DNA of 64,000 nt, taken from assembly GCF_988243305.1 (NCBI RefSeq), contig NZ_OZ547136.1. One strand, written 5' to 3'. Shown here piece after piece: positions 56,102 to 58,583 of the stretch. The stretch's first letter is position 1, and the number at the start of each line of letters is the position of its first letter. The position numbers and the translations under genes are program-made. A model generated the notes under the pieces. The model was not told where the DNA came from and searched no databases. It worked only from the letters and a program-made list of their open reading frames with translations.

Positions 56102-57307
56102 ACCGACTCCTGATTCAAATGTATGATGGTATTCATTGAACAGAACAATGGATCCCCCACCGTTGCTGACCGCAAAACATTTACGCGATTAATACTGCGC
56201 GTAATATAATTAAAAATCCAGCATTCTCAATCCATTACGAAATAAGATGGCATTACGGAATAGCCAGACTTTCTCGTGTTAACGTCCGACAAAATGCGTC
56301 ATTGACAGCGGTTTCTGTGGATTGACACATTTCATTCAGATAATGAATTAATGCTACTGCCGGACCAACCAGCAAACGGGCATTGTGTTCTGAAATCCAG
56401 GCTATTGATTCAACGTCAGCGACAGATCTGCGCTGTAAAAGAACTTGTAAAACAACGCAATAGAATTATCCGGAATGGTGGCGACTATGCACTAGAACAC
56501 CACAATTTCGCTCTCTCGGTAAGGCACTGTCACAGCATTCAACAGAATGTGACTTGCCAGATTTATTAGCGCCACCAGATGTTTAACCGGGTAACCACGA
56601 CCCAGTCGGGGATATATTCCATCTTCTCGCTGACATCATCAAGAATAAAAAGGTTTATCACACTCAGAGCAACGTTCTTCAGCAGGCGGGATAATTCTTC
56701 AACATTTAGAAGATGTGTTATTAAAGGCATACAAACTGGACGTATTGTATTTTCTTTTGGTGGTTGACCTAAGGTAGCAGTTTATCCTGATGCGCTGAGA
56801 TTTCTGTAATATCTACGTCAACATTCTCCTCGAATAGAAAATGCAGCCCCGGCAAGTGATTCACATTTTTTAACAAAACGTTGTTAGCGTGCCATTTTCA
56901 GAAGCTCTCCAAGAAAGCGAATTCTTTTCTCAAATTCTGCATTCTCAGACACAGCTTTCTACTCCATGGCAATGGCCCAAATACGAAGTTGCTCAGGATC
57001 ATTAGTGGTGCTGAGAAGTTAAATAACCATGCGGAGTACCACTCGTCATCACGTATTTATATATCATGAAGCTATTGTTGTGTTTTGTACATCAGTAGAT
57101 ATATTCTGATATACTCCTTTTGCTAGACATAACCTTTCACCTGCTTGCAAAGCTTCTGTGTTCTGACATTGCCAAATTGTTGCAATTCTGTATCCAGCCT
57201 TCTTTCAGTCATAGCTTCGGGCCGCGATAAGACTCACTGATCTGACCCTGATTCCTCTTGCAGACTTTATAGACCATTTAAAATGCAGTTTCGGTAATGA
57301 CTCCAAC

Positions 57308-57811
57308 TTATTGATAGTGTTTTATGTTCAGATAATGCCCGATGACTTTGTCATGCAGCTCCACCGATTTTGAGAACGACAGCGACTTCCGTCCCAGCCG
57401 TGCCAGGTGCTGCCTCAGATTCAGGTTATGCCGCTCAATTCGCTGCGTATATCGCTTGCTGATTACGTGCAGCTTTCCCTTCAGGCGGGATTCATACAGC
57501 GGCCAGCCATCCGTCATCCATATCACCACGTCAAAGGGTGACAGCAGGCTCATAAGACGCCCCAGCGTCGCCATAGTGCGTTCACCGAATACGTGCGCAA
57601 CAACCGTCTTCCGGAGACTGTCATACGCGTAAAACAGCCAGCGCTGGCGCGATTTAGCCCCGACATAGCCCCACTGTTCGTCCATTTCCGCGCAGACGAT
57701 GACGTCACTGCCCGGCTGTATGCGCGAGGTTACCGACTGCGGCCTGAGTTTTTTAAGTGACGTAAAATCGTGTTGAGGCCAACGCCCATAATGCGGGCAG
57801 TTACCCGGCAT
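57308..57811 (-). CDS. insB: IS1 InsB (expressed as InsAB' by frameshift)
   Basis: 167-aa ORF overlapping insA in the -1 frame. Confidence 0.88.
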
Positions 57812-58005
57812 CCAACGCCATTCATGGCCATATCAATGATTTTCTGGTGCGTACCGGGTTGAGAAGCGGTGTAAGTGAACTGCAGTTGCCATGTTTTACG
57901 GCAGTGAGAGCAGAGATAGCGCTGATGTCCGGCGGTGCTTTTGCCGTTACGCACCACCCCGTCAGTAGCTGAACAGGAGGGACAGCTGATAGAAACAGAA
58001 GCCAC
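57730..58005 (-). CDS. insA: IS1 InsA
   Basis: 91-aa [26 protein letters not shown]... with zinc-finger CxxC pairs. Confidence 0.9.
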
Positions 58006-58583
58006 TGGAGCACCTCAAAAACACCATCATACACTAAATCAGTAAGTTGGCAGCATCACCTGCAGTTTCTGCAGGTCAACGTCTGACCATCATTGTCATC
58101 ACTCTGGCCATTAGAGTAACCTTCTGCATTCATCCTTTTGTAAAAAGTTTATATCAGTATCAGCAATTAACCGGACCTGATACTGATATGAGTCTTACCG
58201 CATATACGGTTAATTTCAGCAATTAATTACATTATCCACGCCAAAGTATTTGTCATCACAATGATGGTACCTTCTTTCAGACACCATTTTTTCAACTCCG
58301 TTTTCCACGGACCGCACTCTTATGTCAAGAGTGCGGTCCGTGGATACAACCAGAGACCGACTGACACGAGTCAGAGGAAACGACGGATATGTTCAGTCGT
58401 AAAATATCTATCAAAAAACATGATTAAGGTCAAAAATGTTTGATATTTACAATTTATGAAGATGACAATAATTATAGACACATGAGAACATAAATGAAAA
58501 TAATTATCATTACAGCAATCTGAATCGCCACGGGTTTAACAGACACCTCAGAGTCATTTAAGATGGCTTAAAGAGAGGTGCCC

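Follow-up and report, generated by a model that had tools for sequence, protein, structure and literature searches.

An IS1A-type insertion with a 9-bp target-site duplication in the CP4-44 prophage remnant near cobU

The bacterial insertion sequence IS1 is mobilized by InsAB', a transposase whose synthesis depends on a -1 frameshift at the A6C motif and which acts on 23-bp terminal repeats, and the element forms both simple insertions and cointegrates. One of the closest described copies is IS1A (insA1/insB1) of K-12 MG1655, which agrees with the copy studied here in its 768-bp length, its termini and its layout of insA, A6C frameshift and insB', with 766 of 768 nt identical (99.7%), but lies at another chromosomal location and has another target-site duplication (TSD). 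The TSDs of IS1 are 9 bp long in about 78% of events and 8 bp in about 22% (PMC10359306), and the 9/8-bp rule is also given in a further report (PMC5009759). A preference of IS1 for AT-rich targets has been recorded as well (PMC10359306; PMC5009759).

In this study, a single IS1 copy in a 64,000-nt stretch of DNA (hereafter the window) was compared with K-12 IS1A and, at its site of insertion, with a set of 5,426 complete E. coli genomes, which was searched for the empty and the filled form of the site and from which the relatives were taken. The analysis covers the ends and coding content of the element, the empty site, the nature of the target DNA, and the other IS1 insertions in the stretch close to cobU. 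The pair of filled and empty sites obtained in this way is of the textbook kind.

Ends and coding content of the element

The two copies of TGCAGTTTC that flank the element start 777 nt apart and thus leave exactly 768 nt between them, a segment whose first bases are GGTAATGACT and whose last bases are CAGCATCACC (Table 1). A repeat finder placed an imperfect inverted repeat of 23 nt (78% complementary) exactly at the ends of this segment, and the canonical left inverted repeat occurs only once in the 64-kb window, at the position listed in Table 1. A BLAST search of the window with the element as query revealed no second IS1 copy, full or partial. When K-12 IS1A (NC_000913.3 19796-20563) was aligned to the segment, the match ran end to end without gaps and with 2 mismatches in 768 nt, both of them substitutions within insA (window positions 57799 and 57803). 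The initial annotation had described a 768-bp IS1 with perfect 9-bp repeats on both sides, and this description is correct to the base. It had also named misplaced IS1 ends as the circumstance that would remove the repeat symmetry; the symmetry stands, because both ends align exactly to those annotated for K-12 IS1A. The characters by which an IS1 is recognized were all present, namely a collinear length of about 768 bp, inverted repeats of about 23 bp, insA and insB' with the A6C motif, a 9-bp TSD and an AT-rich target. The 9-mer TGCAGTTTC is found three times in the 64 kb against 0.71 expected, a count that is not the relevant statistic for a TSD; by our own arithmetic, the nine bases abutting both IS1 ends would match by chance with a probability of about 4^-9, or 4e-6.

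A conceptual -1 slip at the A6C motif yielded a 232-aa InsAB', which scored 241.3 bits on NF033558 ("IS1 family transposase"), a model with a score cutoff of 100. The translated InsA of the window copy has Val at residue 68, where K-12 InsA has Ala; the residue falls within the C-terminal region of the DNA-binding helix-turn-helix. The IS1 encoding Val-68 is widespread as an identical 768-nt sequence. With both inverted repeats, insA, the A6C motif and insB' intact, the copy looks competent for transposition, and judged by its sequence it is probably still active.

Table 1. Features of the IS1 insertion in the window and IS1 positions of other complete E. coli genomes, the latter given in window (empty-site) coordinates
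Feature	Position	Strand or orientation	Basis or remark
Left TSD copy, TGCAGTTTC	57284-57292	.	9-bp direct repeat; single copy at the empty site elsewhere
Complete IS1, IS1A-type, 768 bp	57293-58060	-	Ungapped alignment to K-12 IS1A
IRR, GGTAATGACTCCAACTTATTGAT (as read on + strand)	57293-57315	-	Member of inverted-repeat pair; ends aligned to K-12 IS1A
InsAB' transposase coding region, 698 nt	57308-58005	-	insA + insB'
insB' frame, open for 167 codons	57308-57811	-	ORF list; NCBIfam IS1 transposase match
insA, 91 aa, GTG start	57730-58005	-	ORF list; NCBIfam matches to IS1 family and IS1/IS1595 zinc-binding domain
A6C motif, TTAAAAAAC, programmed -1 frameshift in the insA/insB' overlap	57748-57756	-	IS1 position 305
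IRL, GGTGATGCTGCCAACTTACTGAT (on minus strand)	58038-58060	-	Exact match; member of inverted-repeat pair
Right TSD copy, TGCAGTTTC	58061-58069	.	9-bp direct repeat
IS1 of the E14 group	56709-56717	Window orientation	TSD 9 bp
IS1 of SHP24	56904-56912	Window orientation	TSD 9 bp
IS1 of AVS0247	56931-56938	Window orientation	TSD 8 bp
IS1 of DX6	57114-57122	Window orientation	TSD 9 bp
IS1 of SCPM-O-B-12142	57263-57271	Window orientation	TSD 9 bp, GACTTTATA
IS1 of the window	57284-57292	Own orientation	TSD 9 bp
IS1 of G5	56477-56485	Opposite orientation	TSD 9 bp
IS1 of DA33137	56715-56723	Opposite orientation	TSD 9 bp
IS1 of WCHEC035148	56962-56970	Opposite orientation	TSD 9 bp
IS1 of 23CRST032	57183-57190	Opposite orientation	TSD 8 bp
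IS1 of LZYWN_4	57199-57206	Opposite orientation	TSD 8 bp
IS1 of 2452	58135-58143	Opposite orientation	TSD 9 bp
Three IS1 copies without TSD	Left boundaries 58121, 58180, 58220		Foreign DNA abutting

The site with and without IS1

An empty-site query was constructed from the 700 nt on the left, ending in one TGCAGTTTC, and the 700 nt that follow the second copy. The resulting 1400 nt were matched at 100% and in one ungapped piece by three of the 5,426 genomes (OW1E2, B1-56 and AST81), and the query was covered to at least 80% in 2,124 genomes, that is, in these three and a further 2,121. Its central 200 nt, under which no feature is annotated, were contiguous in 3,543 of the 5,426 genomes, including K-12, where a single TGCAGTTTC is located at 2068146-2068154. 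Comparison with other strains therefore recovered the empty site, with TGCAGTTTC in single copy, in thousands of genomes. B1-56, the closest relative found (99.7% across the final 25 kb of the window, with 97% coverage), has the empty site and is without the IS1.

The filled site (2,177 nt) had no full-length match in the 5,426 complete genomes, nor was a match obtained there for the filled site with its IS1 inverted. A 140-nt query across the left junction likewise gave no full match, its top matches consisting of two pieces that came from IS1 at other nearby positions. The junction k-mers of the filled site are TTAAAATGCAGTTTCGGTAATGACTCCAAC and GTTGGCAGCATCACCTGCAGTTTCTGCAGGTC, and exact junction patterns of 30-32 nt returned zero hits in metagenome contigs and zero in GTDB representative genomes. 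IS1 copies in the same region of ET734, YZ22MPE54 and VTB97584v served as a positive control; they lack a TSD and have foreign DNA as their right flank, and inspection of TSD and flanks therefore separates an insertion from a junction. By comparison of the filled with the empty site, the window IS1 is a transpositional insertion. The earlier claim of a transposition, as opposed to a junction derived from recombination, is thereby upheld, with the joined flanks at 100% over 1400 nt in three genomes and the single copy of the 9-mer in K-12; a TSD does not, however, separate a simple insertion from a cointegrate that was later resolved.

The initial annotation had also considered the insertion probably recent, and the distribution of the two forms agrees with this, since 0 filled sites stand against 3,543 empty ones among the 5,426 complete genomes and 0 were found in metagenome contigs and GTDB representatives. 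The reason then given, that the duplication had not decayed, is a weak one, and an intact 9-bp TSD says almost nothing on age. With a base-substitution rate of about 1e-3 per genome per generation (PMC5009759), the 18 bp of both repeats would by our own arithmetic gain one change in a time of the order of 1e8 generations, so that an undecayed duplication barely constrains the date. Elsewhere in the region, IS1 copies that several strains have in common are flanked by TSDs that are just as intact. Recency is supported by the 0-versus-3,543 distribution, by flanks that are 100% identical and by the fact that the nearest relative has the empty site, and on this population-frequency argument, which yields no dated event, the insertion is probably recent or lineage-specific. 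The event would then lie in the recent ancestry of the source strain. It is an ordinary event of a well-documented kind, known to date from that strain alone, and provides a clean strain-specific marker for typing and lineage tracing of the strain.

Target DNA and recurrent IS1 insertions beside cobU

The IS1 has entered AT-rich DNA that is non-coding and unannotated, at the left end of the CP4-44 cryptic prophage remnant, just beyond cobT-cobS-cobU. The insertion site lies about 1.19 kb upstream of the cobU start codon, between the counterparts of the yoeG and yoeH pseudogene fragments, which in K-12 occupy 2067360-2067892 (254 bp away) and 2068261-2068419 (107 bp away), respectively. The GC content of the flanks is 37-45% versus 52% for the window, which fits the known preference of IS1 for AT-rich DNA.

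It had been asked earlier which sequence or small ORF is interrupted at TGCAGTTTC, and the interrupted sequence proved to be non-coding DNA. The longest stop-to-stop stretch that crosses the TSD in any of the six frames of the reconstructed empty site is 55 codons, and no ORF there exceeds 55 aa. A Pfam search with the local fragments of the target, at E values up to 1, gave no match better than E = 0.01; the empty site of B1-56 gave no Rfam match up to E = 1; and nothing is annotated at the site in K-12 or by PGAP in any strain examined. A target lying in a gene or RNA was rejected on these grounds, six-frame translation, Pfam, Rfam and K-12/PGAP annotation all being without a credible candidate. 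In a consensus scan for promoters and terminators over 56100-58700 the counts were not above those of shuffled sequences, and none was destroyed or created at the junctions; a consensus-type candidate for the cobU promoter (56230-56203) is far from the insertion. Since the site touches neither a gene nor an RNA family nor a plausible ORF, the insertion would be selectively neutral.

Two other small features were observed in the neighbouring pseudogene equivalents. That of yoeH contains, at 58304-58344, an 18-bp inverted repeat without mismatches around a loop of 5 nt (TCCACGGACCGCACTCTT ... AAGAGTGCGGTCCGTGGA). Within that of K-12 yoeG, a 54-aa ORF on the minus strand (56566-56730) is annotated as the hypothetical protein WP_001128468.1 in some strains and left unannotated in others, and has no Pfam match.

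IS1 copies of other complete E. coli genomes were mapped onto window (empty-site) coordinates 56477-58220. At least 15 distinct IS1 positions were found in a target of about 970 bp, 12 of them with a TSD (six per orientation) and three without (Table 1). The TSD lengths of 9 bp and 8 bp occur in a ratio of 9:3, near the published 78:22 (PMC10359306). The three copies without TSD mark adjacent deletions or rearrangements. An orientation bias, seen when the first nine of nine mapped copies had the window orientation, was dismissed as an artefact of one-strand joining after a search with inverted IS1 had returned six opposite insertions.

Whether the approximately 1-kb AT-rich yoeG-yoeH remnant is a true regional hot spot for IS1, and not only a stretch that tolerates insertions, is a matter on which we incline slightly towards doubt; a hot spot may come about, for example, if IS1 targets AT-rich DNA that is curved or bound by H-NS. 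If the hot spot is real, the window IS1 would be one more insertion there and a seed for the IS1-mediated CP4-44 deletions seen in other strains. In those strains, IS1 copies of the same stretch stand at deletion junctions. The window copy adds portable homology and, as predicted from its intact reading frames, an active transposase beside an IS-riddled island remnant. The recurrent use of the 1-kb stretch by IS1 could serve as a natural data set on IS1 target choice.

Other mobile DNA is present in the window. About 0.5 kb past the IS1 site an IS3-family element (ISEc52-like according to PGAP) begins at 58521, exactly where similarity to K-12 ends and 30 bp before the start of K-12 yoeA; it comprises orfA (58578-58871) and two orfB fragments (58898-59323 and 61591-61986). 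No match to its right inverted repeat was found with up to 8 substitutions, and the element may therefore be truncated. A group II intron of 2,270 bp (59259-61528) is located inside its orfB, with an ltrA reverse transcriptase/maturase gene at 59915-61438 and an Rfam match to Intron_gpII domain V/VI at 61442-61528, and a precise intron-less site exists in OW1E2 (L001 7115|7116). In OW1E2 and B1-56, and not in the window, an IS30 is inserted in orfA of the IS3-family element, at the point that corresponds to window 58831/58832 (5464-6687 in L001, that is OW1E2, and about 8464-9688 in L003). The window and B1-56 thus show two reciprocal IS polymorphisms, IS1 being present only in the former and IS30 only in the latter. 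The window also contains four tRNA-Asn(GTT) genes that score identically in Rfam (8468-8543, 48365-48440, 50189-50264 and 52597-52672) and one tRNA-Ser(CGA) gene (7387-7476); this is the region of E. coli with several asn tRNA copies, into which islands are known to integrate.

Origin of the insertion and comparison with known systems

We consider it about 95% probable that an IS1A-type element transposed into the non-coding, AT-rich CP4-44 remnant by ordinary IS1 transposition. InsAB' would have been produced via the -1 frameshift at A6C and would have bound the 23-bp terminal repeats, the element ends would have been joined to staggered target cuts 9 bp apart, and gap repair would have duplicated TGCAGTTTC. 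No evidence contradicting this explanation was encountered. Since the insertion, neither an IS1-mediated deletion nor an exchange between IS1 copies has replaced a flank of the window copy.

An indistinguishable end product, one IS1 with a 9-bp TSD, would result if a cointegrate had formed with another replicon, for example a plasmid with an identical IS1, and had then been resolved by homologous recombination between the IS1 copies. IS1 copies 100% identical to that of the window are abundant on E. coli plasmids, which favours such a course, but neither a second IS1 nor plasmid-derived DNA is found nearby in the window and simple insertion is the more frequent outcome of IS1 activity, and we regard the cointegrate as unlikely. 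Much lower still is the probability that we assign to import of the filled allele with a chromosomal segment from an IS1-carrying E. coli. Recombination is frequent in E. coli, and IS and island remnants form a mosaic here that varies from strain to strain; however, no donor was identified, with 0 filled sites in the 5,426 complete genomes, metagenome contigs and GTDB representatives, and over 700 nt to either side the flanks agree at 100% with genomes that have the empty site.

ET734, YZ22MPE54 and VTB97584v demonstrate that IS1 can stand at recombination or deletion junctions in this very region, and a coincidental 9-bp repeat at such a junction, or at a misassembly, was considered for the window on that account. 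However, when the IS1 and one repeat are subtracted, the flanks of the window copy form a sequence that runs uninterrupted in thousands of genomes (in three of these at 100% over 1400 nt), the flanking 9-mers would match by chance at only about 4e-6, and a misassembly would create no TSD. Coincidence, junction and misassembly are effectively refuted.

In K-12, the island remnant near cobU is annotated with a collection of IS elements and pseudogene fragments. IS5H, which lies beside cobU at the left end of CP4-44, shares the neighbourhood of the window IS1, whereas its IS family, target site and TSD length are different. The IS1 copies that other strains carry in the cobU-proximal stretch all differ in position from that of the window, the nearest (SCPM-O-B-12142) lying 21 bp to the left, and some of them are divergent variants with about 94-96% identity. 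Copies on plasmids and chromosomes of E. coli that bear the annotation "IS1-like element IS1A family transposase" are 100% identical over all 768 nt (for example NZ_CP022731.1 121175-121942 and NZ_CP032992.1 2315134-2315901) and differ only in their insertion site, and they are plausible members of the donor population. The window IS1 is therefore an element of an already known type with already known behaviour, at a site that was previously unrecorded.
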